From positions 352,001 through 416,000 of the forward strand of contig JAHQJS010000006.1 of NCBI GenBank assembly GCA_019057385.1: a stretch of 64,000 nucleotides of DNA, in the 5' to 3' direction. Both the position numbers and the translations under genes were made by a program. Of the stretch, positions 3,744-23,450 are shown piece by piece. Origin of the DNA: Candidatus Borrarchaeum weybense (GTDB taxonomy: Archaea > Asgardarchaeota > Sifarchaeia > Borrarchaeales > Borrarchaeaceae). The notes under the pieces were generated by a model that was not told where the DNA came from, searched no databases, and saw only the letters and a program-made list of their open reading frames with translations. Each line of letters begins with the position of its first letter. Positions within the stretch are counted from its first letter, which is position 1.

Positions 3744-5270
3744 TTATAAAACTGCGGAATACTTGATATAATTCCACGTTTTATGATAATCATCAATCTT
3801 TCCGTGAGATGAAAGACCAGCCTTAAGGTTATCGGGCTGTGCGCTCGTCACCGAGTTCAAGACATGCTTCATTAATACTGTTTTTGTAAGTATTTCGGCA
3901 GTCTTGAAGGAAGTTATCCCGCTATGCTTAAAAAGGTCACGGATCATCGACCATCTACGGTAAGGACTGCTCTTTTTCACACGGGGCTCGATGAACTCCC
4001 CGACGTGTGAGAGCACCCAATCGTAGACGGCTGGAATTGCTTCCCTGAAACCCAAACCTCTTCGAGCTATTACATAACTTGCTAAGTGATGTACCGTCAA
4101 ATTATGTAATCCTGAATACTTATATTCCCCAATGAGCGAGGTATATCCGGGAAATACTTTTCTGAAGGACACACCGCGCTTTTGGCATTTTCTCTCTAAT
4201 AGTTGCAAGGCAGTAGTCTTCAAATTGCTTAATTTTCGGTTGCGTTTTGTATTATAGGAAAATTCTTGGTCGAAATGTAAATTCTCGACCACAATGCCCT
4301 TGCCTTTGTTGATGCAGTAATTGACGACTTTATCCATTTTATAGGAGATATAATCATTACGTTTATCTGTTCTATAACTATGCAGGTTGTCAAACGAGAT
4401 GCTATGATACGAGAGCAGAGTGCCGTGCTGGTCTACATTGGTTAACGCCACAAAATTATAGTTGAAATCTAAGCCGATGGCACCATGTTCGTAGCCGTAA
4501 CGTGGTGCGGGTTCGGGCAGTTCATAGGACACATGGACGAAGTAGCGCAGTTTCCTTTTGAAGAGCTTCCTTTTTACGGTTACCGTGTATTTATCAGCAT
4601 TAAGAATCTGCTGAAACCACACTTCCTGCACAAGGTTTACGGACATGGGAATGATCAGCCACGTGCGTCCTTTCTGCTTGGAAAAGGTTCGTATCGTGAC
4701 CGTTTTATCAGGCAATACCTTGATGTTCAGGTTTTTCAATCCTTTTTGTTTCTTTCCTACACAACTGAAGGAAGAATCCCGTCGTATCCTGAACTCTTCT
4801 CTAGTTATGTTGCCGCGTATTCTCTGCCTAAATAAGTTCTTAGTGCCGAATACTACAGATTCGAGATGTAAATTGGGTAGTTTCGTCATTATCGAGGATC
4901 TGCGGGCGTATAAGCCCTTCAACCGGCGATCATGTGTGTCTTGCTCCTTTATGGTGTTGATTTTTTTGATAATGACTGTTATCTGCTGTGTCATGTATTT
5001 CCGTCGTTTTTCCAGCCATGTTTTCTGTGCTTCCAGTTTCGCCTTGTTATCAATCAAGATGGTATTAACATATGGGTTATTGTGACACAGGCTCATCAAA
5101 CACTGTTGGATGGTTTTCCCCTCACCGAAGCGTGTTGCCATGTAGTCCTCGCCATGAAACAACAGGTTATAGCCGATGCGTTTCACCCGGTTATAGATGG
5201 TGAAGAGCTCATGGAGTTTGCGTTCTTGTGCCTCATCGGGATAAATCCTGAATTTGACGGTCTGAATCAT
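3744..5270 (-). CDS. tnpB: IS200/IS605/IS607-associated TnpB-like RuvC protein (long type lacking zinc finger)
   Basis: TVKFRIYP N-terminus, RuvC-I AIGLDFN, RuvC-II IVVENL, YTS, C-terminal HLASYVIARRGLG. Confidence 0.85.
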   Translation of the reverse strand: MIQTVKFRIYPDEAQERKLHELFTIYNRVKRIGYNLLFHGEDYMATRFGEGKTIQQCLMSLCHNNPYVNTILIDNKAKLEAQKTWLEKRRKYMTQQITVIIKKINTIKEQDTHDRRLKGLYARRSSIMTKLPNLHLESVVFGTKNLFRQRIRGNITREEFRIRRDSSFSCVGKKQKGLKNLNIKVLPDKTVTIRTFSKQKGRTWLIIPMSVNLVQEVWFQQILNADKYTVTVKRKLFKRKLRYFVHVSYELPEPAPRYGYEHGAIGLDFNYNFVALTNVDQHGTLLSYHSISFDNLHSYRTDKRNDYISYKMDKVVNYCINKGKGIVVENLHFDQEFSYNTKRNRKLSNLKTTALQLLERKCQKRGVSFRKVFPGYTSLIGEYKYSGLHNLTVHHLASYVIARRGLGFREAIPAVYDWVLSHVGEFIEPRVKKSSPYRRWSMIRDLFKHSGITSFKTAEILTKTVLMKHVLNSVTSAQPDNLKAGLSSHGKIDDYHKTWNYIKYSAVL

Positions 5271-8373: not shown

Positions 8374-9465
8374 TTAAAACATTTTTAGAGTTCGTTGAAT
8401 TGCGTTTAGTGTTGCTGAGACATCGTTTGCATTAATAGCGCCCATATGGCCAATTCGAAAGATTTTACCTTTCAGTTTGCCCAAACCGCCTGCCACGATA
8501 ACGCCTTCTTGTGATAATTGTCCTCTAAAGTCCGCATCTGCAATGCCATTATGATAGACTGCGCTCATTGTATTTGCAGCCCATCCATCCTCAGGAACGA
8601 GTTTAAAGTCCATCTCTGTAAGACCTTTGCGCATCATTTCTGCTAATTTTTCGTGCCGCGCAAACCGTGCCTCCATTCCTTCGCTAACTATTTGATTTAC
8701 ACTTTCATGGAGTGCATAGATTAAATTTACTGCAGGTGTACCGAAATAACTTGGATCACCGCGCTCATATGCTTGCATGATGGGCAACCAGTTGTCAATG
8801 GAAGTATAGAAACACTCAACGGGATGTTTAAGTTTAGCGTGTGCGTCTAAGGCCTTCTGGTTGAAATTCAGTATTGCAAGCCCTGGAGGAACACCCAATG
8901 CCTTCTGTGAACCTGTGAAGCATATATCTACATGATATTTGTCATGATACAATCGTTGTCCTGCAAGAGAACATACTGCGTCTACAATAAATATCGTATC
9001 AAAATCTTTGACAACATTACCAATGGCTTCGATGTCGTTCGCAATACCAGTCGATGTATCAACATGTGTCACTGTAAGGACTTTGTAGTCGTCACTTTCA
9101 AGTTTTTCACGCACCTCTGTAGGATCTGCTGCCTTTCCCCATTCTACTTGAATTTCGTCAACAGCGATTCCGTGTGCTTTGAAAATATCACTGTATCGCG
9201 CGCCGAACACCCCATTATTTACTACTAATGCTTTTTCTCCTCTTTGAATCACATTGGTTGCTGCCATCTCCATAGCTAGCGTCCCAGATCCCGCAATAAC
9301 AAAGGGTTGTCCTTCAGAAATGAAGACCTGTCTTAGTTTTCTTAAAGTATCTCCAAAGATAGAGATAAATTCTGGTGCTACGTGACTCACAGTTACTTTA
9401 CTTAGAGCCCGTATCACTTCTGGATCAAAATTAATCGGTCCAGGGATCATTAAAAGTTTTGCCAA
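8374..9465 (-). CDS. Alanine-glyoxylate / serine-pyruvate aminotransferase (class V PLP)
   Basis: LMIPGP, GSGTLAME, HVDTSTG, DAVCS, GSQKALGVPPG, FRIGHMG. Confidence 0.93.
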   Translation of the reverse strand: MAKLLMIPGPINFDPEVIRALSKVTVSHVAPEFISIFGDTLRKLRQVFISEGQPFVIAGSGTLAMEMAATNVIQRGEKALVVNNGVFGARYSDIFKAHGIAVDEIQVEWGKAADPTEVREKLESDDYKVLTVTHVDTSTGIANDIEAIGNVVKDFDTIFIVDAVCSLAGQRLYHDKYHVDICFTGSQKALGVPPGLAILNFNQKALDAHAKLKHPVECFYTSIDNWLPIMQAYERGDPSYFGTPAVNLIYALHESVNQIVSEGMEARFARHEKLAEMMRKGLTEMDFKLVPEDGWAANTMSAVYHNGIADADFRGQLSQEGVIVAGGLGKLKGKIFRIGHMGAINANDVSATLNAIQRTLKMF

Positions 9466-9963
9466 TTTTGTTCACCTCTAATGTTCTTTTGATAGGGAAA
9501 GTCAGCTAGATTAAGCTGAGCTTTTGTCGTTACTGCTGATACAATGGTCTCAGGTATGTTGTCTAGCAAAAGTAGTGAAACAAGGTTCCAAAGTTTATGG
9601 CGTACACTTGCTTTACTCATTTCCTTGAGGTTGTTTTCATATTTCGCCGATACTCGGCTAATCGTTTTGGTATTCAAAAAACTCTCTAAACCTACGGGAC
9701 AAGTTTCTCCCGTTCTGAACATCCGTGGGACAAACTTTGTCCCTAAACTCCTTGGTACAGCATCCCAACCTCACCTAAAACCAATTGAAATTTATATTGT
9801 GTGCTTTATACTTATATTGTATATAAAGATTTTCCCTCAAACGCAGTTTTCTCAAATTCAAGAAGATTTCAATACCTTAGTATATCTTTGCTTTGTTAGC
9901 GCACGTTTATCATTTGAAAAAACAGTTTTTTCGCGACAAAAAATAAAAAGGAGATTAGAAGGC

Positions 9964-10878
9964 TTAAACTTGTGTCCAAGCCTCTTTTAATGTACGTTTT
10001 ACATTTGCTATAGCCATCTCTGATGTAATACCTTTATGAGGTTTTACTTCGAAACTAACAAATGGGCGTTTACCTTTTTCTAAGTAATCAATTTCAAAAA
10101 GGGCATCTAGGTATTCTGCCAACTCTGTTGCGTCATTTTCTCCTCCTTCAACACCGAAGATCGGATGTTGATCTCCATACAACGGGTTGTTCGGGTCTTT
10201 AACGCAATTTCCGAGGTGCACTAATGTGAGGTAATCCTTCGTGGTCGATAATGCATGGGCAGGTGTCTCATTTAGTAGTGGAAGATGACTTAAATCATGC
10301 ATTAAACCGAAAGTAGGATATCCTGCCTCTCGTACTGCCTTGGCAAACTCCACTGCTGCTTCACTTGGCCCTATCAAAGATTTTTTATCAATATCACGAT
10401 CAAAAATCTCTAAAGTTAACGCTAGATTTCCTTGGCTTTTTGCATATTCGCAGAGTTGTTTTAAAGAATCGATTAATAATGCCATCCCCTTCTCTCTGGC
10501 CGCATCACCTGGATAAGGGCCACTTAGAACGGTAAGATACTCTGCGCCAACTTCGTAGGCTTCGTCAATAGCTGATTTTATTGCCTGTATGGATTTGTTT
10601 CGCAATGCATCGTCTAGTGCGTTCAAATCAAGTTTAGGAAGCAATAAAGCAGGCTGTGCCGAGAAATTAACTGTCAGACGAGAAGCTGTTAAGAGCGCAG
10701 CTACGTCATCTTTAATTGCCGGATCCTTGCATCCACCATAGTCAACAGCTGAGAAAAAGCCGTCTTCGGCTATCTTTGTAAGCGTTTCGAGTATAGGGCC
10801 TTCTCCCGCAAGGCATTCTGGAAAAACCATTCCATGCACTATACCGACTTTCATATAGAGATCCCAATGTTTTTTCAT
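9964..10878 (-). CDS. Xylose isomerase-like TIM-barrel sugar phosphate isomerase/epimerase (possible hydroxypyruvate isomerase analogue)
   Basis: LTLE, DLSH, VHLGN, SFEVKP metal-ligand pattern; directly downstream of gcl. Confidence 0.75.
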   Translation of the reverse strand: MKKHWDLYMKVGIVHGMVFPECLAGEGPILETLTKIAEDGFFSAVDYGGCKDPAIKDDVAALLTASRLTVNFSAQPALLLPKLDLNALDDALRNKSIQAIKSAIDEAYEVGAEYLTVLSGPYPGDAAREKGMALLIDSLKQLCEYAKSQGNLALTLEIFDRDIDKKSLIGPSEAAVEFAKAVREAGYPTFGLMHDLSHLPLLNETPAHALSTTKDYLTLVHLGNCVKDPNNPLYGDQHPIFGVEGGENDATELAEYLDALFEIDYLEKGKRPFVSFEVKPHKGITSEMAIANVKRTLKEAWTQV

Positions 10879-10899
10879 TTTTTCACCGCCTTTAATTTG

Positions 10900-12612
10900 T
10901 TATCCCCTTTCAGCTATGGCGTCCAGAGCTAAGCCCATACTACAATTGGTTTCTCGTTCGCAGATTATATCTAATATTGCAGGGGCATTATCTAGAGCTC
11001 TCTGGAAGGCAGCCTTAAGGTCTCCAGGTTGTTCCACTCTTTCGGCATATAGTCCGAACGCTTCTGCAAGCTTAACGAAATCTATTCCTATTCCATGCTT
11101 CGCTAACTTATCTGTATCGTACGTTAAATCTACCGCATATTCATAGTCATAAACAATGGATTGGTTCTGTCGGATTAAACTTAAGAAACCGTTGTTGAGC
11201 ACAAGCATAACTATTGGAGTTTGGTAGTGAGCTGCCATCGCTAATTCTTCTACCATGAATCCTAATCCGCCGTCTCCTGTGATGCCTACGACTTTCTTTT
11301 GTGGCATTTCCATTTCCTCGTATCCGACTTTAGCTCCAATTGAAGCTGGTAAATCCCAACCCAACGTTCCCGCGCATCCGCAGACTTTATAATGTCCTGG
11401 TTTCTTTATTTCTTGATATTGACCGCTCCAAATCTGATTAAGTCCGACTGATGTCACAAAAATTGTGTCATCATCAAAGAATTCATTTATTTCTTTGAAA
11501 AGTCTTTGAGGCTTGATTGGCACATCATCAAAGTCTAATCTTCTCGCAAGCTCTTTGCGTCGGGCAGGTATTGACGATACCCATTCATTTGGCATTACTT
11601 TTGCATTTCGCGCTTTGGCTTGATCGATCATCATTTGTAGTGCTTCTTTGGCATCTGATACAATTCCTAACTCTGTAGGGACGATCTTGCCAATTTGTAG
11701 AGGATCAATGTCAATGTGGATGAACTTTCTGTCTTTAGTGTAAACATCTAGTTTACCCGTATGACGATCAACAAATCTGGCACCAACCGCTAAAACAAGA
11801 TCGCTCTCTAAGAATAGCTTGTTGCCAAGTCTTGTTTGCATGATGGTACCAACCAGTCCCGCGTATAATGGATGATTAGTGTCAAGCGCACTCTTTCCCA
11901 TGTAGCTAGCACAGATTGGTAAACTTAAATATTCTGCTAATTCTTGGAGTTCTTTGGAAGCGCCCGAAATAATGACTCCTCCTCCGGCTAAGATGATTGG
12001 ATTCTTAGCTTCCAAGATCATATCAATTGCTTTCTTGATTTGTCTTTCATTTGCTTTGGGTGTCGAAAAGTCTAAACTACGATCTGTTTCTGGATCATAT
12101 TCAATTTCTGTTCTCTGGAGGTCAACGGGGAGATCAATAAGCACTGGTCCGGGTCTTCCTTCTCTAGCGATTCGAAAAGCTTCCCTCATAGTACCTGGGA
12201 GGCGATAAGGCTCCCTAACACAATAACTTTTCTTAGTCACTGGTTTAACTATTTCTGCTATGTCAACCGCTTGAAACGCCTCTTGACCCAATACTGCTCT
12301 CGTCGCTGTCCCAGTAATTGCGACAATTGGGATAGAGTCAACTTGAGCGGTATAGAGACCTGTTACAAAATTTGTCGCTGCAGGTCCGCTCGTGCAGATA
12401 CAGACGCCAACTTTTCCAGTTGCTCGTGCATATCCGTCAGCTGCATGGCATGCTCCTTCTTCATGTCGAGCAATATAGTGCTTTATTTTTGTTGTTTGCC
12501 CAAGGTATTTGTAGACGGGATTTATTGCTGCGCCCGGTATACCAAACATTGCTGTTACTCCTTCATCTTCAAGGATTTTTACTATAACTTCCGCTACTTG
12601 CATTTTAGGCAT
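10900..12612 (-). CDS. gcl: Glyoxylate carboligase (ThDP enzyme)
   Basis: FGIPGAAINP, FQAVDI, DDVPIKPQR, AGTLGW, LIRQNQ, ERETNCSMG match Gcl-specific segments rather than generic AHAS. Confidence 0.88.
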   Translation of the reverse strand: MPKMQVAEVIVKILEDEGVTAMFGIPGAAINPVYKYLGQTTKIKHYIARHEEGACHAADGYARATGKVGVCICTSGPAATNFVTGLYTAQVDSIPIVAITGTATRAVLGQEAFQAVDIAEIVKPVTKKSYCVREPYRLPGTMREAFRIAREGRPGPVLIDLPVDLQRTEIEYDPETDRSLDFSTPKANERQIKKAIDMILEAKNPIILAGGGVIISGASKELQELAEYLSLPICASYMGKSALDTNHPLYAGLVGTIMQTRLGNKLFLESDLVLAVGARFVDRHTGKLDVYTKDRKFIHIDIDPLQIGKIVPTELGIVSDAKEALQMMIDQAKARNAKVMPNEWVSSIPARRKELARRLDFDDVPIKPQRLFKEINEFFDDDTIFVTSVGLNQIWSGQYQEIKKPGHYKVCGCAGTLGWDLPASIGAKVGYEEMEMPQKKVVGITGDGGLGFMVEELAMAAHYQTPIVMLVLNNGFLSLIRQNQSIVYDYEYAVDLTYDTDKLAKHGIGIDFVKLAEAFGLYAERVEQPGDLKAAFQRALDNAPAILDIICERETNCSMGLALDAIAERG

Positions 12613-12647
12613 AATCTTCTCTCCTATTTTGTTTATTTTTTAGAGGG

Positions 12648-13634
12648 TTATCCATAAATATCTGGATTAACACAATTTGGTGGTTTGAGTCCCTTAACAC
12701 CAGCAATTACATTTTCAGCAGCCATGGTCGCCATTTTAGTACGAGTCTCTATTGATGCGCTTGCGATATGTGGCGCTAACACAACGTTATCCATTTCATA
12801 AAGTTCTGGTTCAGCTTTAGGTTCCATTTCAAAGACATCCAAACCAGCACCAGCAATCTTTTTCTCCTGTAATGCTTTAACGAGTGCTTTTTCGTCTAAT
12901 ACAGGACCTCTTGATGCATTGATCAAATACGCAGTCTCTTTCATCAAGTCTAGTTCTTTTGCGCTAATATAGTGCTTTGTTTCTGGAAGTAACGGGACAT
13001 GCAATGTCACATAGTCGCTCTCTTTGAGAAGCGTCTCTTTATCTACATATTGAATTCCTAATTCCTTTTCTAGATCCTCAAACCGTACGACATCTGTATA
13101 AAGAACTTTCATGTCGAAACCCTGAGCTCTTTTTGCAACCACACGCCCAATTCTTCCAAGTCCGACGACTCCCAGTGTTTTTCCGTAGACATCAGAGCCG
13201 AGGAATTGCATTATACCCCAGCCTTTCCATGTTTTTTGCCGGAAGTATTTATCTGCTTCGACAACACGTCGCGCGACTGCCATTAGAAGTGTCCAAGTGA
13301 AATCTGCGGTTGTGTCATCCAATACGCCCGGTGTATTAGAAACTGCAACGCCGAGTTCGGTGGCGGCTTTCCAATCGATATTGTTGTAGCCTACAGCTAC
13401 ATTGCTGACTACCTTAAAATTAGGATTTGCTTCTTTCACGGTTTTTAGAATCTCGGCGTTAATGTCGTCAGTGAGTAGGCAAACAAGCCCATCAAGGGTT
13501 TTCATTTTTTCAATAAACTCTGCTTGCGTAAGAGGGACATCACTTTCATTGAGTCCCATCTCACATTCCTTGTCGATCATATCTAAAGCTGGCTTTGGGA
13601 TCACGCGTGACACATAGACTTTTGGTTTACTCAA
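12648..13634 (-). CDS. gyaR: Glyoxylate/hydroxypyruvate reductase
   Basis: AVGYNNID, NTPGVL, GLGRIG, INASRGPV, PHIASAS. Confidence 0.88.
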   Translation of the reverse strand: MSKPKVYVSRVIPKPALDMIDKECEMGLNESDVPLTQAEFIEKMKTLDGLVCLLTDDINAEILKTVKEANPNFKVVSNVAVGYNNIDWKAATELGVAVSNTPGVLDDTTADFTWTLLMAVARRVVEADKYFRQKTWKGWGIMQFLGSDVYGKTLGVVGLGRIGRVVAKRAQGFDMKVLYTDVVRFEDLEKELGIQYVDKETLLKESDYVTLHVPLLPETKHYISAKELDLMKETAYLINASRGPVLDEKALVKALQEKKIAGAGLDVFEMEPKAEPELYEMDNVVLAPHIASASIETRTKMATMAAENVIAGVKGLKPPNCVNPDIYG

Positions 13635-13864
13635 AACTAACCCTCACGATCTCGATAAAATTGTAAAAGAGTTTATAGTACTTCGAATTTATAATTCTAA
13701 TCATGCGCGCACACAAACATATTCGTTCAACCTTATCTTTATAACTTTCAGCGTACTAATAATTCGGTATTAATTGGAGGAAAAATAAAACGGAGACCTA
13801 AAAGGCAAATAATTTGAGGGGATCACCAAGAAAAGGAGGCTTGAAAATTACACTTGAGGAGCTT

Positions 13865-15298
13865 ATGGAACATAAACTAGACTGGGAGGGTACAATCATC
13901 CCGGAATTGAAGGAGATTGTTGGAGAGGAAAATGTTCTCAATCATGTAATAGATCTCTATGTGTACAGTCGCGACGCCAGCATAGACACTGGATGGCCAG
14001 CAGCAGTAGCTTTCGCTCATAATACAGAAGAGGTTTCGAAGGTCGTCAAATTAGCGAACAAATATGAATTTTCGATCATTCCACGTGGCGCAGGCAGCAA
14101 TGTTTGTGGTGGAGTTATCCCTGCAAAACCTGATTGTCTTATTCTTGTCGTTGCAAGGATGAATAAAGTTGTAGATCTCGATTTAGAGAATTTTCTAATA
14201 ACTGTTGAGCCAGGAATGGTATGTCTAGATCTAAATAACTACATAGAACCATACGGCTTTTACTTCGTGCCAGATCCCGCAAGCGATAAAACAGCGACCA
14301 TTGGTGGCATGGTTAATAATAATAGCGGCGGAATTCGCGCAGTCAAATACGGTGTCACAGAACAATGGGTGATGGGTCTTGAAGTTGTATTAGCCGATGG
14401 GACAGTCGTTCACATTGGCAATAAAGCTATTAAATACGTTTGTGGTTATGATCTAGTTTCTCTCTTCGTAGGTTCAGAAGGAACTTTAGGTATTATAACA
14501 AAAGCAATGCTAAAAATGCAGCCGCTGCCTGAGGTCCGCCTCGTAGCTAGTGGTTATTTTGATACCGCCTTTGCCGCAGGTAAGTGCGTCAGAGAAATCA
14601 TTCGGAGAGGCTTTGACCCTTCAGGCACCGAAATAATGGATTATAAGACACTTAAAGCTGTAGAAGAGTATTCTGGTAAGGTAAAATTCCCTGAATGCGG
14701 TGCTGTAGTAGTTGTTGAACTTGACGGAAATAGAGAAGATGTAGAAATGCGTCTTGATCGATTAGAATTAGTCTTTAAAGAAATGGGCGCACTTCAAACC
14801 GAGGTCGCAAGAGATGCAGAAACATGCGAACAAGTGTGGGCGGCAAGAAAGGCAGCATTCCCAGCACTAACTTTACGAAGACCTACTGCTCGTATGGAGG
14901 ACGTAAGTGTCCCACTCGAAAACTTACCCGTTATGTTCCAAAAAATTGATGAAGTTAGTAAAAAGAATGGAATTGAAATAGCGACGTTTGGTCACGCAGG
15001 AGATGGCAACTTACACCCGATACTTCTCTGGGACGAAAGAGATCCAGATCAGCATAGACGCGCATTACAAACTTTAATTGATTTATGGCATGCTGCGGTA
15101 AATTTGGAGGGGACTGTAACTGGCGAGCACGGAATCGGAGTTTCTAAACTTATGATGATGCCGGTGGAACATGAAGCGGCAGTACTTGAGTTAACGAAAA
15201 AAATCAAACAAGCCTTTGACCCAAAAAACATACTGTGTCCTGGTCATGTCATACCTATTCCAGGTCAAAAATTCTTTACTGAGGAGGATGTAAGCTAA
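13865..15298 (+). CDS. glcD: FAD-linked glycolate/D-lactate dehydrogenase subunit (GlcD family); ORF track start 13814, ATG 13865 preferred
   Basis: PRGAGS, PDPAS, TIGG, KYGVT, GSEGTLG, GHAGDGNLH, GEHGIG; SD GAGGAG before 13865. Confidence 0.9.
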   Translation: MEHKLDWEGTIIPELKEIVGEENVLNHVIDLYVYSRDASIDTGWPAAVAFAHNTEEVSKVVKLANKYEFSIIPRGAGSNVCGGVIPAKPDCLILVVARMNKVVDLDLENFLITVEPGMVCLDLNNYIEPYGFYFVPDPASDKTATIGGMVNNNSGGIRAVKYGVTEQWVMGLEVVLADGTVVHIGNKAIKYVCGYDLVSLFVGSEGTLGIITKAMLKMQPLPEVRLVASGYFDTAFAAGKCVREIIRRGFDPSGTEIMDYKTLKAVEEYSGKVKFPECGAVVVVELDGNREDVEMRLDRLELVFKEMGALQTEVARDAETCEQVWAARKAAFPALTLRRPTARMEDVSVPLENLPVMFQKIDEVSKKNGIEIATFGHAGDGNLHPILLWDERDPDQHRRALQTLIDLWHAAVNLEGTVTGEHGIGVSKLMMMPVEHEAAVLELTKKIKQAFDPKNILCPGHVIPIPGQKFFTEEDVS

Positions 15299-15299
15299 A

Positions 15300-16484
15300 A
15301 TGACGAAAGAAAACGTAGTTTCAGGCACAATGCTACCACAAAGATTCGAAAAAATGATTATTTCCGAAGATTCCGAAACTGAGACGTACAGATGTGTAAG
15401 ATGTGGCTTCTGTAGGTTTGCATGTCCAATTTTTGACGCGACTAAAGTAGCTACTTTCAATTGCAGAGGTAGAATTATGGTTGAGCGTGCCCTTATCGAA
15501 GGAGGACTTCCTATTGACCAAAGGGTTCTTGATCTTCTTTATACCTGCACGTTGTGCAAACTCTGCGAAACGCATTGCCCTGCTAAGATCAAAGTCACGG
15601 ACGTGATGCATCACGTCAGAGAGTGGCTTGCTGAACAAGAACATGCCCTTGATGAGCATAAGGCAATCGCAAGCAACATATTGGAGATAGGAAATACTCA
15701 CGCTCAGGATCCCGCTATCTTCAAAGAGGTTTTTGGTGAGATAATTGCAGCTCTTCCAAAGGAATCTTCTACTCTTTACTATGCTGGATGTGTTGGAACA
15801 ATTGATTATCCAGAGAATTCACTCGCTGGCATCAAACTGTTGAAAGAAGCAGGAGAAGAATTCATAATGCTTGATTCAGAATATTGCTGTGGAGGTTATC
15901 TCAACTGGCTAGGGTTTACAAAGGACTTCAAAAAAGAAGCTGAGAAAAATATAGAAATCTTCAAATCACGTGGGATTGAGACCATTATTACGGCATGTCC
16001 AATGTGTGCATCGGTTTTCAATAATGATTATAAGGAAGTCTTGGAAGATATGCCAAAGGCTTATCATATTACGGAAGTTCTCGAACGCTTGGTTGATGAA
16101 GGAAAAATAAAACTTACGCGACCACTCGAAGCAAAGGTTACTTTCAAAGATCCTTGTCACCTCGGTAGATATGCACAGGTTTACGACGCTCCACGAAAAC
16201 TGATCGAAAGTATTCCAGGCGTTGAGTTCGTTGAATTACCCGAAACTATGGGCGAAGCAAGATGCTGTGGTGGACCTATTCGTGTTCCTTATACTGCCTT
16301 GAGAAATGATCTAACCGATGAGATCGTAAGAGACGCCGCTAAGTTAGATGCTCAATTTGTTGTGACGTCATGTCCAACATGTCACCATAGTCTAAGTATG
16401 AGAGCCTACAGAGAACGTATTCGCGTTTTAGAATTGCCAAGACTTGTTGCCTATTCAGCAGGTGTAGTTGACAGTTATCGCTAA
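15300..16484 (+). CDS. glcF: Fe-S oxidoreductase with 2x[4Fe-4S] and two CCG domains (GlcF/HdrD-like)
   Basis: CVRCGFCRFACP, CTLCKLCETHCP, CCGG twice, TACPMC, DPCHLGR, TSCPTC; 1 bp after glcD. Confidence 0.85.
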   Translation: MTKENVVSGTMLPQRFEKMIISEDSETETYRCVRCGFCRFACPIFDATKVATFNCRGRIMVERALIEGGLPIDQRVLDLLYTCTLCKLCETHCPAKIKVTDVMHHVREWLAEQEHALDEHKAIASNILEIGNTHAQDPAIFKEVFGEIIAALPKESSTLYYAGCVGTIDYPENSLAGIKLLKEAGEEFIMLDSEYCCGGYLNWLGFTKDFKKEAEKNIEIFKSRGIETIITACPMCASVFNNDYKEVLEDMPKAYHITEVLERLVDEGKIKLTRPLEAKVTFKDPCHLGRYAQVYDAPRKLIESIPGVEFVELPETMGEARCCGGPIRVPYTALRNDLTDEIVRDAAKLDAQFVVTSCPTCHHSLSMRAYRERIRVLELPRLVAYSAGVVDSYR

Positions 16485-16671
16485 ATGTGACAAGTATCTT
16501 ACCACGCATTACAAGTGTATGGGGATATATGTGTACATCAGTTTCTCCACTTTTTTTAAAAATTTAAATTATGGAGTCACGCTGACATTATCAAAGAAGA
16601 ATTGAATGAAAAACAACCGAACATTAGGTCATAGTAGTTTGGAGGTGTTCACGAAGTAGGAGGCTCGTTAA

Positions 16672-19600
16672 ATGAATGCATTGGAAAATAAAACGGCAGA
16701 AAATATCTTGGTGATTGGCGGCGGAATGGCTGGAATGTATGCCTCGCTAGACATTGCAAATCAAGGCTATACGGCTTTTCTAGTAGAGAAACGAGAAACG
16801 ATTGGAGGAAGATTTTCGCAGGTTTACAAAATCTTTCCGACTGATGAGTGCTCAGCTTGACCACTTACGCCCCTTATGTCAAGTGTTGCCAGAAACGACA
16901 ATGTTCGCTTGTTTACTCTTACCGAAGTCTTAGAGGTAAATGGCGAACCAGGGAATTTTACGGTAAAACTTAAGCAAAATCCTAGATATATCGATCCAGA
17001 CAAATGCACAGGATGTCAAAAATGCATGGAAGAATGCCCTGTTGAAGTGACTTCAGAATATGATATGAATCTTGGTGTCCGAAAAGCAATCTACCTTCCT
17101 TTTCCACAAGCAGTACCTCAGATTCCTCGCTTAGATAAAGAGAACTGCATTGACTGTGGCATGTGTGAGCTGGTATGCCCTGCTGACGCAGTGAATCATG
17201 AAGATTTTGAAAAAATCTTCGAAATCGAAGTTGGTTCGATAATCGTAGCAACGGGTTTTGATGAGTTTAATCCTGAACCATTAAAACAATTTGGATATGG
17301 ATACTACGAAAATGTTGTTACATCACTTCAATTCGAGCGAATGATGCATCCTACAGGTCCAACTCAGGGCAAGATAGTGAGACCTTCTGATGGAAAAGAA
17401 CCACGCAGAGTATTATGGGTTCAATGTGTGGGCTCTAGGAGTGAAAAAGAAGTCGGCAATAAATTCTGTAACCGGGTCTGCTGTATGTTTGCATTAAAAC
17501 AAGCTAGAGCCTATAAACTGCAATCAAAAGGAAAAGGACAGGCAGACCTTTGCTATATAGATATAAGATCCTCAGGAAAACTGTACGAGGAATACTACAG
17601 GGACACACGAAATAATTATATGCCTAATTTAATTCGCGGTAAAGTGGCGGAAATTCAAGAAAACGAAGAAACAAAAGACTTAATCATCTGGGTTGAAGAC
17701 ACTAATACTGGAGAGGTTTCTCAGATCAAAGATGTTGATCTTGTTGTCTTATCTAGCTCATTTGTTCCATCCGAAGGGACAAACGAACTATGCCAAACAT
17801 TAAGCGTTGAAATTAGCGATGATGGATTTCCCTTGGAAGTCAACAGTTATCATCCAATCGAAACAACTCGACCTGGAATCTTTATGGCGGGTGTGGCAAC
17901 AGGCTCAAAAGATGCTGTGGATACAGTTACTCAAGCAAGAGCTGCGGCATCGTCTGCAGTGAACCTTTTATCTGGTTCCCCACCATATATCAAATCATAT
18001 GCATCTAAAACGGAATTAGAAGGTTCTGGCGAGATTCGACTTGGCGTTTTTGTATGTCACTGCGGTGGCAATATCGCAAATTACATCGATATAACAGAAG
18101 TCATGGAATATGCGAAGACATTACCTGGCGTGATCTACGTAGATAATAATGAGTTCTTCTGTAGTGAGCCAGGGCAACAGCAAATCAGCGAGAAAATAAA
18201 GGAACTCAATATTAATCGAGTTTTAGTGGCGGCATGTTCTCCTTTACTCCATGAGGACACATTTAGGACTCTTTTAGAGTCTGCTGGAATAAGTAAGTAC
18301 TATCTTGAATATGTGAACATAAGAGACCAAGCAGCGCAAGTTCATATGCAGACACCAAAAGAAGCCACCGAAAAAGCAAAGGATTTGATCAGGGCTGGCA
18401 TTGCACGAGCACTACATCTTGAGATTGTGCCATATCGGATGGTATCAGTTGTCAACGAGGCTCTTGTTATTGGTGGTGGAATTGCTGGAATGTCAGCTAC
18501 CCTTGATTTATCTAATCAAGGATTCAATGTTCACCTCGTAGAGAAAGAATTGCAACTGGGTGGTCGTCTCAATTCTCTTTACAGAGTATTTCCAGAAAAA
18601 ACTGAAGCTAGCCAAATTGTGGATGAATTAACTGCACAGATAACTAATGCTCCCAATATCTCGGTTTACCTTGAGTCTTCGTTGGAATCCCTTGATGGTC
18701 ACATCGGTGATTTTACAGCTAAAATTAGGAGAAATAATGGAGCAAATACCGATATTAACGTTGGAGCTATTATCGTGGCTGTCGGAACAAATACATATAC
18801 TCCCAAAGATGGCGAATACGGTTACAATACTGTTCCACGTGTTGTAACTTCTCTTGAATTCGAGGAACTGCTCAAAACTCGTAATTTTGATCAAGATCCA
18901 AAGCGCATTGTCTTTATTCAATGCGTTGGGTCACGAGAAGAAGACGGAAACAAATACTGCTCCCGTGTGTGTTGCGGCGTATCACTGAAAAATGCGCAGA
19001 ACGTTAGAGAACTCTTTCCGAACTGTCAAACCTTTGTCCTTTTTAAAGAGGACCTACGACCTGTTGGAAGGTATATGGAAGAGTTTTATCTAACTACAAG
19101 AAAGCAATATCGTACCAATTTTATGCGATGGACAGAAGAAAGACCCCCAATGGTTACGGAAGCCCAAAATGGTAATGCTCTGGTGCAAATATACGATACC
19201 CTTTTACGAACTACATTCGAGATAGACGCCGATTATGTAGTGCTAGCGGTAGGACAAGAACCTCCTGAAGGCTTTGATGAACTGTGTAAGATAATAGGGG
19301 TTACTCGCTCTTCTGATGGTTTTCTTGAGCCTATCCACATAAAATTCAAACCTGTTGAAACACGAAAAGATGGTGTGTACGTAGCAGGGACCATTCTATC
19401 TCCACGAAGCATAAGCGACTCAATAGTGCTAGGTAAAGCCGCAGCGTCGGCAGCAAGTGTGCTTTTACAACAGAAAGAGATTCAACTTGAACTAATCAAG
19501 GCTGTATGTGACGAGAATCTTTGTAGCGGATGTAAGGTGTGCGTAATAGCCTGTCCATATGATGCTATAACTACTAAAGAAACTGAAGCAGGAGAACTCG

Positions 19601-20157
19601 TTTCGGTTACTGATGAAATTGAATGCAAGGGCTGCGGATCCTGTATTGTAGCATGTCCCTCTGGCGCTAGAGAACTTCGATACTGGCGGGATGAGCAATT
19701 CTATCCACAAATTGAATCGCTTTTAGCTGAAAGCAAGCAAAAATCATTACTTCTTGTTTTTGCTTGTGAAAAATGTGGATATGGTGCTGCTGACTTAGCT
19801 GGACTTTCAAAACTTCAATATGACTATCGTACTCGAATTATACGCGTGCCATGTACTGGTCGTGTTGACACACCGTGGTTACTTAAAGCATTTTCACTCG
19901 GCGCAGATGGCGTCGCAGTAGTCGGATGACACAAAGGCGACTGTGCATATATTGACGGCAACCTACAAGCAGAAAAATCCGTTGGATTGGCTGAGAAACT
20001 CCTTGAAACCATGGGCTTTGGTGAAGGCAGAACTGTAATGTACTTCCTTTCATCTGCGGAAGCAGAAAAATTCAGAGAAGCAATGCAAACTTTTGGCGAA
20101 AGTATTTCGAAACTTGGACCCAATCCGTCGCGCATAGCTCAAACTAGAACGGAATGA
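16672..20157 (+). CDS. hdrA: Tandem HdrA-HdrA-MvhD fusion selenoprotein, 1161 aa, two in-frame UGA (16858-16860, 19927-19929)
   Basis: ORFs 16672..16860 and 16876..19929 and the unlisted tail to 20157 are one frame; UGAs fall at FPTDECSA-U-PLTP and GADGVAVVG-U-HKGDC, both conserved Cys/Sec positions. Confidence 0.92.
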
Positions 20158-20200
20158 TCTCTCTCGGGAAACCCTTTCGGGACTGAGAGAAGGACTGGCT
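20144..20200 (+). promoter_or_regulatory. SECIS-like element
   Basis: Stem TCTCTCGG(20160-67)/CTGAGAGA(20183-90), unpaired GAAA and A, minihelix CCC-TTTC-GGG; ATGA(20154-57)/GA(20193-94) at the base. Confidence 0.85.
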
Positions 20201-20275
20201 CCCTACGCAGGGATGCTTCTTATATATAACTTTCATAAGAATATCCTTCAATAAGACAATTAGGAGGACTTATCA

Positions 20276-20728
20276 ATGGGTAAACTTGAAGATTATGAAC
20301 TTCCAGATGACCTATATTATACAACTGAACATTCTTGGGCAAAAGTAGAAGGAGATTCTGTCGTGGTCGGCGTAACCGATTTTGCGCAGGCTATGGCTGA
20401 AAAGATTCAGGCTGTGCAATTACCTTTTGAAGGCGAGTCAGTAGAGTTCATGAAACCTTTTGGAACACTAGAAAGCGGCAAGTGGACAGGCAAGATTTAT
20501 GCCCCAGTCTCAGGTGAAGTTACTGCGTTCAATGAAGGATTGTGGGATGATGCCTCACTTGTCAACAATGATCCCTACGGCGAAGGTTGGATGGTCAAAA
20601 TTACTCCATCCAATTTGGATGAAGATCTTTCAAAACTTATGAAGGGTGGCACGGACGAATTTGTTCAATGGCAACTTGCCGAAATTGAGCGTGTAAAGAA
20701 GGAAGTAGAGGAATCAAAGAAGGAATAG
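20276..20728 (+). CDS. gcvH: Lipoyl carrier protein (glycine cleavage H / LbpA-like)
   Basis: HSWAK, VGVTDFAQ, LESGKWTG (lipoyl Lys), APVSGEV, NNDPYGEGW. Confidence 0.93.
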   Translation: MGKLEDYELPDDLYYTTEHSWAKVEGDSVVVGVTDFAQAMAEKIQAVQLPFEGESVEFMKPFGTLESGKWTGKIYAPVSGEVTAFNEGLWDDASLVNNDPYGEGWMVKITPSNLDEDLSKLMKGGTDEFVQWQLAEIERVKKEVEESKKE

Positions 20729-20731
20729 AAT

Positions 20732-21271
20732 TTGGAAAACGAAAAGGTAGTAAAGATTTCAGATCTAGACTTGAGCCTCGCAGAGGAATTCATCGAGGAC
20801 ATGTCATTTGATCTCTTTGCTTGCTATCAGTGTGGCACATGCACTGGTAGCTGTCCTGTAGCACGGTTCGGTGGCGAAGAATTCAGTCCGAGAAATATCA
20901 TTCGGCTTATCATGTTGGGGGATCGAGAAGCAGTATTGCGCAATCCGCTCATTTGGTTGTGCACAGGCTGTTATGTATGCGAGGAACGTTGCCCTCAAGA
21001 TGTAAAACCTCCAAAGATCATCGTTCATCTCAGGAACATTGCGGCTAAGGAGAACATTATACCAAGCGTATGGTCAGATATCGCAGCCAATATCTTAACA
21101 TTTGGTCTTATGAACGAGATTGGGGAGTTCGAGAACAAAGTCCGTAAAACTCGTTTCAAACTTCCTGAACTACCAACTCCTGACGCTGATACAATGCGAA
21201 AACTCGCTGAAAAGATTAAGTTTGACAGATTAGTCCATTATAAACATCCTGAAGAAGAAACTGGTGAATAA
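20732..21271 (+). CDS. hdrC: Heterodisulfide reductase subunit C
   Basis: CYQCGTCTGSCP and WLCTGCYVCEERCPQDV. Confidence 0.93.
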   Translation: MENEKVVKISDLDLSLAEEFIEDMSFDLFACYQCGTCTGSCPVARFGGEEFSPRNIIRLIMLGDREAVLRNPLIWLCTGCYVCEERCPQDVKPPKIIVHLRNIAAKENIIPSVWSDIAANILTFGLMNEIGEFENKVRKTRFKLPELPTPDADTMRKLAEKIKFDRLVHYKHPEEETGE

Positions 21272-21273
21272 AA

Positions 21274-22161
21274 GTGAAGTACGCTCTTTTTCTAGGTTGT
21301 ACAATTCCCGAAAAAATGAACGGCTACGAAGCCTCTTCCCGCGTGGTCGCAAGGGAACTTGGGGTAGAACTGATCGATCTCCCTAATTCAGGATGTTGTG
21401 GTTCTCCTATCGTTCGTTCAATGGACGAACAATATTGGACGTTATTGGCAGCTAGAATTTTAGCTACAGCCGAAGAAATGGGCTTGGATCTTTGCTGTTT
21501 ATGCAACGGCTGCGTAGGCTCAATCATGCATGCAAATGAGTACTTGAAGAAGGATAAAATCGCAAGGGAACGTATTAACGATATTCTGTCAGACTTTGAT
21601 CTAGAATATAAAGGCACACTTGAAGTGAAACATCTTCTCAAAATTCTTTATGAGGATGTTGGACTTTCACGAATAAAGGAACACCTTGAGATACCGTTTA
21701 AAGACGGGCTTAAGATTGGGGCATACTATGGATGTCACATGCTTCGCCCTTCTGAGCTTACGCACCATGGAGACCCCGAGCGACCTACGCATATGGATGA
21801 AATCATAAATCTTACGGGAGCTATTGCATCAGATTATGAGGGGAAAATATCCTGCTGTGGAGCCCCCGTCTTAAGTAATGCCCCGGAGATCGCTTGGCGT
21901 CTGACACATCGTATCATATCTACTGCGCACGACGCAGACCTTAAGGGTCTCATAACAATATGCCCATTTTGCTCTCTTAGCCTCGATTTAAATCAGATCA
22001 AGGTTAAAGAACTCTGGGAACTTGACTATGATATCCCTGTTCTTCACCTACCGCAACTGTTGGGACTTTCAATGGGCTATGGGGTCAGAGAACTTGGCAT
22101 ATTTGAAAACAGAGTTAAGAGTGCGATGAAATTCCCTCGATTTCTTTTAAAAAATGAATGA
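21274..22161 (+). CDS. hdrB: Heterodisulfide reductase subunit B
   Basis: YALFLGC, CCG, CNGC, YYGCHMLRP, CCG, CPFC. Confidence 0.94.
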   Translation: MKYALFLGCTIPEKMNGYEASSRVVARELGVELIDLPNSGCCGSPIVRSMDEQYWTLLAARILATAEEMGLDLCCLCNGCVGSIMHANEYLKKDKIARERINDILSDFDLEYKGTLEVKHLLKILYEDVGLSRIKEHLEIPFKDGLKIGAYYGCHMLRPSELTHHGDPERPTHMDEIINLTGAIASDYEGKISCCGAPVLSNAPEIAWRLTHRIISTAHDADLKGLITICPFCSLSLDLNQIKVKELWELDYDIPVLHLPQLLGLSMGYGVRELGIFENRVKSAMKFPRFLLKNE

Positions 22162-22205: not shown

Positions 22206-23450
22206 ATGATCGAATTTGAGCGAAGTCTAGAGTTTGCAAAAGAACTGGACTTGGCGGATCCATTAGCTAAATTTCGAGCAATGTTCCACTATCCCAACTC
22301 CATAATCTATTTTTGTGGCAACTCATTAGGTCTTCAACCAAAAACAGCAAGAACTGAAATAGATAGAATCCTAAAGACATGGGAGGAGATTGGTGTTGAA
22401 GGATGGTTTCATGGGTCAAAAAACTGGTTTTCCTATTCAGATGATTTAGTAAACAGCTTGGCACGAATTATAGGTGCACATCCAGAAGAAGTTTCAATAA
22501 TGAACTCTTTGACTGTCAATCTTCATCTTCTTCTAGTAAGTTTTTACCGTCCTACTTCAGACAGACACCGAATATTGATTGAAGAACATGCTTTTCCAAG
22601 TGATCAATATGCTTTAAAATCCCAAATCCGTTTTCATGGCTATGACGTTAATGATTCTCTACTAGAAGTTAAGGCAAGAGCTGGTGAACATACGCTTAGG
22701 ACAGAAGACATTATTGAAGCAATAGATGAATCTATCGCCTTAGTCCTTTTTTCTGGAATCAACTATCTTACTGGTCAAGCATTTGACATGGAAGCCATCA
22801 CTAAAGCTGCCCATGCAAAAGGGGCAGCTGTTGGCTTTGATCTTGCACATGCAGTAGGAAATATCCCTCTTGAATTGCATGATTGGAATGTAGATTTTGC
22901 CGTTTGGTGTAATTACAAGTATCTTAACGCTGGTCCTGGTGGAATAAGTGCCTGTTTTATACATAAAAACAACTTTGAGAAAGATCTCCCTCGATTTGAT
23001 GGCTGGTGGGGTGGGGAACGTGAGACAATGTTCCTAATGGAGCCAAATATCAACCCAGCGCTTGGAGCTTCCGGTTGGCAAATAAGTACTCATCCTGTGC
23101 TTTTATTAGCAAGTTTGAAAGCAGCGTTAGACGTTTGGGATAAGTTAGAGGACCTCTCCCTATTTTATAAGAAAAGAGATTTGTTAACTGGCTACTTAGA
23201 ATTCTTGATAAAAGAACTAGGTCCTGAAAATTACGAGATAATTACCCCTTCAAAAGCTAATGAGCGAGGATGCCAACTCTCAATTCGAACTCTCAAAAAT
23301 GGTAAAAAATTATTTAATACATTGATAGATCGGGGGGTAACCGTTGATTGGAGGGAGCCTGATATAATCCGTGTTGCCCCCAATCCTTTGTACAATACAT
23401 TTGAAGAAGTTTTTTTGTTTGCTGAGATACTTGCAGAAGCAGTACAATGA
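22206..23450 (+). CDS. kynU: Kynureninase
   Basis: YFCGNSLGLQP, AFPSDQY, DLAHAVGN, WCNYKYLNAGPG, RGCQLS, DWREP. Confidence 0.95.
   Translation: MIEFERSLEFAKELDLADPLAKFRAMFHYPNSIIYFCGNSLGLQPKTARTEIDRILKTWEEIGVEGWFHGSKNWFSYSDDLVNSLARIIGAHPEEVSIMNSLTVNLHLLLVSFYRPTSDRHRILIEEHAFPSDQYALKSQIRFHGYDVNDSLLEVKARAGEHTLRTEDIIEAIDESIALVLFSGINYLTGQAFDMEAITKAAHAKGAAVGFDLAHAVGNIPLELHDWNVDFAVWCNYKYLNAGPGGISACFIHKNNFEKDLPRFDGWWGGERETMFLMEPNINPALGASGWQISTHPVLLLASLKAALDVWDKLEDLSLFYKKRDLLTGYLEFLIKELGPENYEIITPSKANERGCQLSIRTLKNGKKLFNTLIDRGVTVDWREPDIIRVAPNPLYNTFEEVFLFAEILAEAVQ

Follow-up and report, generated by a model that had tools for sequence, protein, structure and literature searches.

A gene for a putative lipoyl carrier of the K-W clade within a GlcDF-HdrABC-MvhD cluster of the Asgard archaeon Candidatus Borrarchaeum weybense

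Enzymes of the heterodisulfide reductase (Hdr) family carry HdrB-type CCG sites that reduce a disulfide on two non-cubane clusters, while the flavin adenine dinucleotide (FAD) of HdrA bifurcates electrons to ferredoxin (PMC5861303). In sulfur oxidisers such as Hyphomicrobium denitrificans and Thioalkalivibrio, an Hdr-like complex (sHdr) requires a lipoylated protein with the GcvH fold, LbpA (Cao et al. 2018, PMC6067878). Flavoproteins of the LctD type oxidise lactate only if reduced ferredoxin is co-oxidised (PMC5861303), and for the 'HdrD/GlcD' pairs of Bathyarchaeia, Methanomethylicia and Korarchaeia a transfer of 2-hydroxyacid electrons to a disulfide has been proposed (PMC10667645). For Asgard archaea, an unidentified heterodisulfide is invoked (10.1101/2023.11.21.568159). 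A single paragraph on the Culexarchaeia raises the possibility that the disulfide for HdrB is carried by GcvH (PMC9723716). Here, a gene cluster of Candidatus Borrarchaeum weybense (Asgardarchaeota; assembly GCA_019057385.1) is described, in which the gene of a GcvH-fold protein lies between hdrA/mvhD and hdrC, downstream of glcD and glcF. The cluster is located in a window of 64,000 nucleotides, i.e. the whole stretch of DNA that was analysed (contig JAHQJS010000006.1, positions 352,001-416,000, forward strand). Comparative genomics lends good support to a functional unit of the lipoyl carrier, Hdr and GlcDF. It is moderately probable that the lipoyl group is the substrate of the CCG sites in this unit and links a 2-hydroxyacid couple and ferredoxin by flavin-based electron bifurcation or confurcation.

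The closest proven system is sHdr-LbpA. As in that system, a CCG-type Hdr is tied to a GcvH-fold protein outside glycine cleavage that possesses a lipoyl lysine, and lipoylation genes of the archaeal LplAB-LipS1/S2 type are present in the genome. By contrast, the carrier of the window lacks the two cysteines of LbpA and belongs to a clade with a K-W motif, sulfurtransferase genes are missing, and a single hdrC-hdrB pair plus an HdrD-like GlcF replaces the arrangement hdrC1B1A-hyp-hdrC2B2. Moreover, HdrA is a tandem MvhD fusion of the bifurcating type with two predicted selenocysteine (Sec) residues, the partner is of the GlcD/HdrD type, and the organism is a strict anaerobe. With the methanogen complexes MvhADG-HdrABC and FdhAB-HdrABC (5odc, 7bkb, 9sfi) the cluster has HdrB, HdrC, the HdrA domains and MvhD in common as well as Sec at a position known from Methanococcus HdrA. 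It differs in the tandem duplication of HdrA and its fusion to MvhD, in the lipoyl carrier gene between hdrA and hdrC, and in the lack of MvhAG and FdhAB in the operon and its flanks, the only Hdr locus inspected for them. Since Mcr and ComA are missing from the genome, the heterodisulfide of coenzyme M and coenzyme B (CoM-S-S-CoB) is also an unlikely substrate. LctBCD (Ldh-EtfAB) of Acetobacterium woodii (7qh2; PMC5861303) contains the nearest solved relative of GlcD, and in both cases the 2-hydroxyacid is too positive for the acceptor, for which co-oxidation of reduced ferredoxin is the proposed remedy. However, HdrA would stand in place of EtfAB and lipoate in place of NAD+, and an HdrD-type subunit is present; the resemblance is a functional one only. 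The combination of a GlcD flavoprotein and a Fer4/CCG subunit is shared with the 'HdrD/GlcD' pairs and with the two-subunit D-lactate dehydrogenases of sulfate reducers but here, and in many of the sampled loci, a dedicated lipoyl carrier is added and in this genus also a full HdrA-MvhD-HdrCB set. Finally, the Ehe cluster of Culexarchaeia (PMC9723716) likewise harbors a GcvH gene inside an Hdr cluster of a non-methanogenic archaeon, yet it is built on a membrane [NiFe] hydrogenase, SdhA and CdhA, and its authors reported neither a carrier clade nor a motif or a linkage across phyla. While a combination of Hdr and lipoyl carrier was thus known before, the K-W clade, its cross-phylum linkage and the GlcDF-HdrABC module appear to be new; in the literature searched, which covered few subscription journals, no paper was found that defines this clade, its linkage to CCG proteins across phyla or a GcvH-GlcDF-HdrABC module.

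Genes were called from the listing of open reading frames (ORFs) and from Pfam and NCBIfam profile scans, the scores of which were compared with the family (equivalog) cut-offs. The genome has a size of 4.18 Mb on 8 contigs with a GC content of approximately 37%, and is estimated to be 100% complete with 7% contamination. All ten genes of the cluster were recovered in the order and orientation given by a first-pass annotation of the sequence (Table 1). On the plus strand glcD, the glcF-like gene, hdrA/mvhD, gcvH, hdrC and hdrB follow each other, with gaps of only 3 bp between gcvH and hdrC and 2 bp between hdrC and hdrB. The divergent minus-strand set comprises the gyaR-like and gcl-like genes and those of a TIM-barrel protein and a class-V aminotransferase. 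Scans of the window also bore out the statement that hydrogenase, Fdh, Flx, DsrC and further gcv genes are lacking within the cluster and its flanks.

The carrier clearly exhibits the GCV_H fold (Pfam GCV_H 127 bits, NF002270 132 bits, both over the cut-off), and its Lys69 aligns with the lipoyl lysine of 1onl_A. The putative lipoylation site reads E-S-G-K69-W-T-G, in which S67, K69, W70 and G72 are invariant among 30 carrier homologues (52-89% identity), while the canonical site E-S/A-V-K-A/T/S of H proteins adjacent to gcvT is not present. In ten Asgard relatives, the H proteins adjoining gcvT were all of the K-A type (ESVKA, ESMKA, ESEKA, DTAKA) and none of them revealed K-W. A quick maximum-likelihood tree of 91 GcvH-family sequences placed all K-aromatic proteins on one side of a branch with a Shimodaira-Hasegawa-like approximate likelihood ratio (SH-aLRT) support of 91, and all canonical V-K-A/T proteins on the opposite side; five of the eight gcvH paralogues of the genome fall into the K-aromatic group. 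In this tree, the clade of the carrier is separate from canonical GcvH. LbpA proteins are defined by two conserved cysteines, one near each terminus, a rule from which the original paper exempts some archaeal LbpAs (Cao et al. 2018, PMC6067878). The carrier contains no cysteine and thus lacks the LbpA hallmark, a distinction that is drawn from the published cysteine description (PMC6067878). Judged by motif and tree, the carrier is a member of a distinct GcvH-derived clade and not the H protein of glycine cleavage.

The linkage of gcvH, on whose conservation the first-pass reading had been made to depend, is kept in three same-genus genomes, in other Asgard families and in further phyla. Within the genus, the whole cluster including the divergent operon is retained as far as the contigs reach (70-98% protein identity), and the gap between gcvH and hdrC amounts to 3 bp in all four members. 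In two other Asgard families, hdrC-hdrB-hdrA is located next to a K-W gcvH. Desulfocarbo indianensis possesses hdrA/FlpD-hdrC-hdrB-gcvH followed by a GlcD::Fer4::CCG fusion; its hdrA/FlpD gene call is split, as is expected for a Sec codon. The same six gene families were found in a deltaproteobacterial metagenome-assembled genome (L047) in the order hdrA-hdrC-hdrB-gcvH-glcD-glcF, and gcvH-glcD-Fer4/CCG modules, including gcvH followed by a GlcD::Fer4::CCG fusion, on two more contigs (L124, L127). On an ENA contig (L126, 6001-12426), a K-W gcvH heads an operon with NuoE-, NuoF- and FdhA-like genes and those of HdrC and HdrB, which suggests that the carrier may also serve Hdr modules linked to NAD or formate. 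In Thermodesulfobacteriota, Chloroflexota, Bathyarchaeia, Thorarchaeota and other groups, members of the K-W clade adjoin genes of HdrB or of GlcD/HdrD-like proteins. The common denominator among the neighbours is a CCG-domain protein.

For a quantitative comparison, 80 loci from many phyla were taken from one-genome-per-species contigs. Seventeen of 32 K-aromatic carriers lie at most 3 kb from an HdrB or GlcF homologue, compared to none of 46 V-K-type GcvH proteins (Fisher 9e-9, uncorrected for relatedness). If any Hdr or GlcD gene within 5 kb is counted, the number of linked carriers rises to 20 of 32. Since proteins of the window served as queries, the census is conservative for distant CCG proteins. 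A similar picture emerged in the genome itself, where five of the eight gcvH genes are situated within 5 kb of one of 23 CCG-protein loci, although only 6% of the genome is that close to one (binomial probability ~4e-5, arithmetic on these counts). For instance, the gcvH gene at C2:2455 precedes glcD-glcF-glcD-glcF and that at C6:688547 follows hdrB by ~150 bp. Judged by its synteny, the arrangement of the cluster is far beyond chance.

The first-pass annotation had also called for a genome check for mcr, dsrC and coenzyme M synthesis. McrA, DsrC and ComA were not found (other genes of coenzyme M and coenzyme B biosynthesis were not searched), nor did GcvT (GCV_T) and GcvP (GDC-P) give any match in the genome, even though the same searches were positive in 11 and 10 of 14 reference genomes, respectively. 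Thus, neither CoM-S-S-CoB or DsrC nor glycine cleavage explains the H protein. Lipoylation of the carrier is plausible because the lysine is invariant, LplA/LplB and LipS1/LipS2 are encoded, and ligase genes follow K-W carriers elsewhere. A complete lipoate assembly cluster of the archaeal kind, LipS2-(159 aa)-LplA-LplB-LipS1, is located at C4:1146826-1150742 (L129:3826-7742), with 350 bits for LipS2 (cut-off 270) and 281 bits for LipS1 (cut-off 230), while no LipA exceeded its cut-off anywhere in the genome. A second ligase is encoded downstream of an E1-E2 operon, and in loci of Thermoplasmatota, Thermodesulfobiota and Desulfobacteraceae a lipoate-protein ligase gene comes directly after the K-W carrier. 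A BPL_LplA_LipB match at C6:228712 was rejected as a lipoate ligase since it belongs to a biotin ligase.

Two other lipoyl loci of the genome deserve mention. At C5:417367-419248 (L131:5367-7248), a gcvH with the canonical motif ESVKT shares an operon with the genes of an Lpd-like flavoprotein, of a DRTGG/AAA_26 protein and of an acyl-CoA synthetase (ADP-forming), 3.5 kb from an hdrC-hdrB pair; the Lpd-like gene borders directly on gcvH and is one of those encoded elsewhere in the genome. The 2-oxoacid dehydrogenase operon E1alpha-E1beta-E2 at C4:1195691-1202487 ends in a tandem HdrA/MvhD of 1110 residues in place of E3 (L130:14647-17979; L135:288-3487). Its E2 comprises lipoyl, E3-binding and catalytic domains, and the neighbouring genes encode an OYE/Pyr_redox_2 protein and an HdrD-like Fer4+CCG protein. 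This operon may represent a coupling between lipoyl-E2 and Hdr; the junction of E2 and HdrA recurs in two genomes of the genus and not beyond.

All cysteines required for the redox sites are present in the Hdr subunits. HdrB matches 5odc_B end to end (244 bits), and both of its CCG motifs are complete, the ten cysteines (9, 41, 42, 77, 80, 154, 194, 195, 230, 233) being invariant in 11 GcvH-linked HdrB sequences. HdrC contains eight cysteines in two CxxCxxCxxxC motifs, corresponding to two [4Fe-4S] motifs. GlcF combines an HdrC-like 2x[4Fe-4S] domain (cysteines 32/35/38/42 and 83/86/89/93) with two complete five-cysteine CCG motifs (164/196/197/233/236 and 286/322/323/358/361) and so possesses the complete HdrD-type set; it matches HdrC and HdrB chains in the PDB, while the model of glycolate oxidase GlcF yielded only 81 bits (cut-off 333). 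The closest solved relatives of GlcD are LctD of the confurcating Ldh-EtfAB (7qh2_C, 275 bits) and then glycolate oxidase (9qgz_A, 263 bits). As the cluster harbors neither glcE nor Etf genes and GlcD, like GlcF, scored below its glycolate oxidase cut-off (Table 1), GlcD and GlcF match neither a GlcDEF glycolate oxidase nor, despite the LctD-like GlcD, an LctBCD complex. A complex prediction of HdrB and the carrier with two alignments returned a score of 0.00, which gave no answer and counts neither way.

The hdrA/mvhD gene is longer than the ORF initially assigned to it (16876-19929), because it is cut by two in-frame TGA codons (Table 1). The first lies in FPTDECSA-U-PL, the second in VVG-U-HKGDC of MvhD. 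Both align with Cys codons (TGT/TGC) of paralogues and homologues, and the orthologues of the three same-genus genomes have TGA at either site. X (Sec) occupies the site of the first TGA in the solved HdrA of Methanococcus. In a domain map against 9sfi_A, 5odc_A and MvhD chains, residues 13-352 match an FAD domain with an inserted ferredoxin domain and residues 455-626 an N-terminal domain together with the first part of another FAD domain. The end of the FAD domain and the C-terminal ferredoxin domain are matched by residues 838-1022, and a whole MvhD by residues 1026-1154. The domain set of methanogen-type HdrA and MvhD is therefore entirely present, but in a tandem-duplicated order on a single chain. 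SepSecS is encoded in the genome (411 bits), while no tRNA-Sec was returned by aragorn when its output was filtered for Sec or TCA.

The 3′ untranslated region (UTR) of hdrA/mvhD contains a hairpin with an 8-bp stem, a GAAA/A internal loop and a CCC-loop-GGG, in which AUGA overlaps the stop codon. Its apical part shows a methanogen-like GAA/A loop, and it is nearly invariant across four genomes although HdrA is only 70-90% identical; one C-to-U change preserves the pair. A strict Methanococcus-type pattern of the Sec insertion sequence (SECIS; lower stem of 7 bp or more, GAA-N, three G/C pairs, A) occurred at only two sites of the genome, one of them the hdrA 3′ UTR, so that the pattern is unusable here as a genome-wide SECIS detector. 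With gathering thresholds, Rfam yielded no match anywhere in the window. A relaxed search of 16400-20400 (E up to 10) revealed nothing relevant either, and no SECIS model was matched. Taken together, the pairing of TGA with Cys, SepSecS and the conserved hairpin argue for a selenoprotein HdrA with a VhuD-type MvhD. A single conserved hairpin would then serve both Sec codons of the one HdrA-MvhD fusion.

The divergent operon fits glyoxylate metabolism, but each of its members scored below its equivalog cut-off. The positions and order of its genes were as described in the first-pass annotation, while the names were only partly corroborated, as the 'gcl' product stayed below the cut-off and the 'isomerase' is merely a generic AP_endonuc_2 protein. 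For the glyoxylate carboligase/glycerate pathway, the candidates are the Gcl- and GyaR-like enzymes, both below the cut-off (Table 1), and, where hydroxypyruvate isomerase is required, a generic isomerase. Among the models of thiamine diphosphate (ThDP) enzymes, the Gcl model was the best (720 bits), but the acetolactate synthase model passed as well (546 bits, cut-off 538). The Gcl-like enzyme retains RHEE and with it the canonical ThDP glutamate, which is replaced in the true carboligase of E. coli; this is a lead and not a test. It is unusually conserved, with 97-98% identity within the genus compared to 80-93% for neighbouring proteins, while the TIM-barrel protein is 88-90% identical across the same-genus loci. 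The best NCBIfam matches of the aminotransferase were pyridoxamine-pyruvate and aspartate-glyoxylate transaminases, both far under the cut-off. Outside the genus, the carrier-Hdr-GlcD module occurs without genes of the divergent operon. On this basis, glycolate is favoured as the substrate here, while D-lactate or another D-2-hydroxyacid is possible.

A potential of about -90 mV applies to glyoxylate/glycolate and of about -290 mV to lipoamide, and ferredoxin is in cells nearer to -500 mV. In the first-pass annotation, GlcDF was the electron donor on MvhD and the lipoyl group the high-potential acceptor of HdrB. This scheme cannot run forward since glycolate or lactate (-190 mV) lies above both lipoyl and ferredoxin, and the wiring must be inverted or left open. 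Published potentials are -190 mV for pyruvate/lactate, -140 mV for CoM-S-S-CoB, -320 mV for NAD and, as the standard value, -420 mV for ferredoxin (PMC5861303). The mean of -90 (or -190) mV and -420 to -500 mV amounts to -255 to -345 mV, which brackets the lipoyl couple. A 2-hydroxyacid cannot supply electrons to lipoyl and to ferredoxin at once. The scheme balances only if lipoyl takes the middle-potential position, and the sole balanced reaction would be 2 dihydrolipoyl-H + 2-oxoacid + Fd(ox) <-> 2 lipoyl-H + 2-hydroxyacid + Fd(red), where H is the carrier and Fd ferredoxin.

According to this model, the plus-strand operon would encode one soluble redox system consisting of the GlcD/GlcF dehydrogenase, the tandem HdrA-MvhD with its two Sec residues, HdrC/HdrB and a dedicated lipoylated carrier. 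The dithiolane/dithiol on Lys69 would take the place of CoM-S-S-CoB in methanogens, with HdrB and/or GlcF providing the non-cubane clusters at which its disulfide is formed and cleaved. The system would be an Hdr-based analogue of the confurcating LctBCD in which protein-bound lipoate replaces NAD. In the catabolic direction, reduced ferredoxin would help to raise the electrons of glycolate or lactate onto lipoyl-H, the Lpd-like enzymes encoded elsewhere might equilibrate the carrier with NAD or pass its electrons to NAD+, and glyoxylate formed could enter the divergently transcribed C2/C3 genes. The docking site of GlcF may be MvhD or the second half of HdrA, to which it would bind like an HdrCB unit. 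Gene content, intact cofactor motifs, Sec codons, clade identity, conserved linkage, the absence of glycine cleavage genes and the presence of lipoylation genes are shown by the sequences. That the carrier is lipoylated and binds HdrB or GlcF is inferred in this model, as are the choice between glycolate and D-lactate, bifurcation and its direction. The lipoyl group is favoured as the disulfide because the CCG, HdrA, MvhD and HdrC sites are intact, the linkage is conserved and clade-specific, and the other disulfide candidates are missing.

Several observations weigh against this interpretation. Most K-W carriers of other Asgard genomes belong to the E-T-G-K-W-V-G type and have no Hdr gene within 1.5 kb, and the copy of this type in the genome studied here (C4:332876) sits among housekeeping genes. 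Some K-W carriers adjoin genes of CBS-domain proteins or housekeeping genes, Theionarchaea-type copies preceding CBS-domain genes. The assignment to glycolate is weak, as GlcD, GlcF, Gcl and GyaR are all under their equivalog cut-offs and the Gcl-like enzyme keeps its glutamate. The potentials of glyoxylate/glycolate and lipoamide are textbook values for the free compounds and not for this protein. In solved Hdr complexes, HdrB stands on the high-potential branch, whereas lipoyl would be the middle partner here, and CCG proteins are not always disulfide reductases. A few contigs of 155-227 nucleotides from a single RNA library, one metatranscriptome with a 5% word share, match glcD and hdrA, and one of them spans the first TGA with zero mismatches; given possible DNA carry-over, these short matches are no more than a hint of expression.

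Other explanations of the cluster have to be considered. HdrABC might act on another, small thiol or disulfide, with GlcDF as a separate D-lactate/glycolate dehydrogenase that feeds MvhD-HdrA and the H protein as a passenger or regulator. 'HdrD/GlcD' pairs and Mcr-less HdrABC/MvhD are indeed widespread in archaea, where the disulfide is called unknown (PMC10667645; 10.1101/2023.11.21.568159), and HdrABC-MvhD also works with non-disulfide modules, e.g. MetFV (PMC5861303). Nevertheless, this option is rather unlikely: ComA, McrA and DsrC were not found, and a mere passenger is hard to reconcile with the clade-specific adjacency of carrier and CCG genes in many phyla and with the constant 3-bp gap in the genus. 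GcvH acts as a lipoyl relay in Bacillus and mitochondria. It is conceivable, though unlikely, that K-W carriers are likewise scaffolds for lipoate assembly or relay, or general thiol reductants for peroxidases, which Hdr merely keeps reduced and which have no role in 2-hydroxyacid catabolism. Such a relay would agree with the ligase genes immediately 3′ of K-W carriers in three phyla, with the Asgard-wide E-T-G-K-W-V-G copy that has housekeeping and no Hdr neighbours, and with the two E2 proteins of the genome that need lipoylation, but it leaves five K-W paralogues in one genome unaccounted for, as well as the repeated tight placement by HdrB or GlcD/HdrD-like genes (gaps of 3-170 bp) in bacteria and archaea. 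Lipoylated GcvH-like proteins have been proposed as reductants of OsmC/Ohr peroxidases (bioRxiv 10.64898/2026.10.01.755906); a peroxidase gene is, however, absent from the cluster.

A sulfur system like sHdr/LbpA, in which the lipoyl arm carries sulfane sulfur that is oxidised or reduced by the Hdr-like complex, is very unlikely even though sHdr-LbpA is the one case in which an Hdr-like complex is proven to work with a lipoyl protein of the GcvH fold (PMC6067878) and the genome holds the LplAB-LipS1/S2 pathway that accompanies sHdr. Apart from the missing cysteines of the carrier, genes of DsrE, TusA and rhodanese are missing from the cluster and its neighbours, the cluster lacks a second hdrC2B2 pair, the MvhD and ferredoxin domains of HdrA are those of the bifurcating type found in methanogens, and the partner gene encodes a 2-hydroxyacid dehydrogenase. 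The first-pass annotation had, moreover, considered that HdrBC replaces the L protein of glycine cleavage or glycine synthase, fed via the aminotransferase. The class-V aminotransferase of the divergent operon could in principle interconvert glyoxylate and glycine, but the idea is extremely improbable. It is contradicted by a genome that is estimated to be complete and yet encodes neither the T nor the P protein (GcvT, GcvP), and further arguments against it are the Lpd-like genes present elsewhere and the K-A type of all gcvT-adjacent H proteins of relatives.

Table 1. Features of the cluster and the adjoining gene (positions refer to the window; bits are given with the family cut-off)
Feature	Position	Strand	Evidence
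Class-V (AGXT/BhcA-like) aminotransferase, last gene of the divergent operon	8374..9465	-	Pfam Aminotran_5 5e-27
Xylose-isomerase-like TIM-barrel protein (isomerase/epimerase)	9964..10878	-	Pfam AP_endonuc_2 4e-15; NCBIfam epimerase matches weak
Glyoxylate-carboligase-like ThDP enzyme	10900..12612	-	NF008431 720 bits, cut-off 791
Glyoxylate/hydroxypyruvate-reductase-like D-2-hydroxyacid dehydrogenase (gyaR-like)	12648..13634	-	NF009714 398 bits (cut-off 455); Pfam 2-Hacid_dh_C 7.6e-63
GlcD-type FAD 2-hydroxyacid dehydrogenase	13814..15298	+	Pfam FAD_binding_4, FAD-oxidase_C; TIGR00387 434 bits (cut-off 568)
GlcF/HdrD-type iron-sulfur subunit	15300..16484	+	Pfam Fer4_8 and 2x CCG
Tandem HdrA-HdrA'-MvhD fusion, predicted selenoprotein, 1161 codons	16672..20157	+	Read-through of TGA at 16858-16860 and 19927-19929
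SECIS-like hairpin, 3′ UTR of hdrA/mvhD	20154..20200	+	RNA fold
GcvH-fold lipoyl carrier (predicted), K-W clade	20276..20728	+	Pfam GCV_H 4e-37
HdrC	20732..21271	+	TIGR03290 110 bits (cut-off 160)
HdrB	21274..22161	+	TIGR03288 282 bits (cut-off 345)
Kynureninase, 44 bp 3′ of hdrB	22206..23450	+	TIGR01814 437 bits (cut-off 246)

Further features were noted in the window. The gene downstream of hdrB encodes a bona fide kynureninase, which is unexpected for an anaerobic archaeon; its position is kept in two same-genus genomes (G001, G004), while the contig of the third (G002) stops inside hdrB. An IscB-like protein of 407 aa with RRXRR and HNH domains (36161-37384, minus strand) is encoded in a 2-kb stretch of 51% GC compared to ~37% in the genome and probably belongs to a mobile element of the OMEGA/IS200-605 type. 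Another ORF of 508 aa (3744-5270, minus strand), whose sole Pfam match is an HTH_OrfB_IS605 N-terminus, may encode a TnpB-like transposon nuclease.

Genes of the K-W clade are labelled 'glycine cleavage system H protein', a systematic annotation error that is corrected here. In uncultured anaerobes, to which the Asgard relatives of eukaryotes belong, HdrABC/HdrD-like genes rank among the energy genes that are commonest and most strongly expressed, and the physiological disulfide of Hdr enzymes outside the methanogens is a long-standing question, for which protein-bound lipoate offers a concrete candidate. A small and readily produced lipoyl protein tied to Hdr across domains makes this question directly assayable. 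It is tentatively proposed, as a possibility that still falls short of being probable, that lipoate on K-W carriers is the general physiological substrate on which CCG enzymes of the HdrB/HdrD type act in anaerobes other than methanogens (Asgard and other archaea, sulfate reducers, syntrophs, Chloroflexota). Lipoyl pools would then be a cytoplasmic redox currency alongside NAD and ferredoxin, which in the cluster described here would act as the middle-potential two-electron partner of a new, bifurcating or confurcating 2-hydroxyacid dehydrogenase based on Hdr. If this holds true, energy conservation in syntrophy and fermentation would have to be modelled differently, quinone-free oxidation of glycolate or lactate by low-energy anaerobes would be explained, and the role of lipoate would extend past 2-oxoacid and glycine metabolism and sulfur oxidation.

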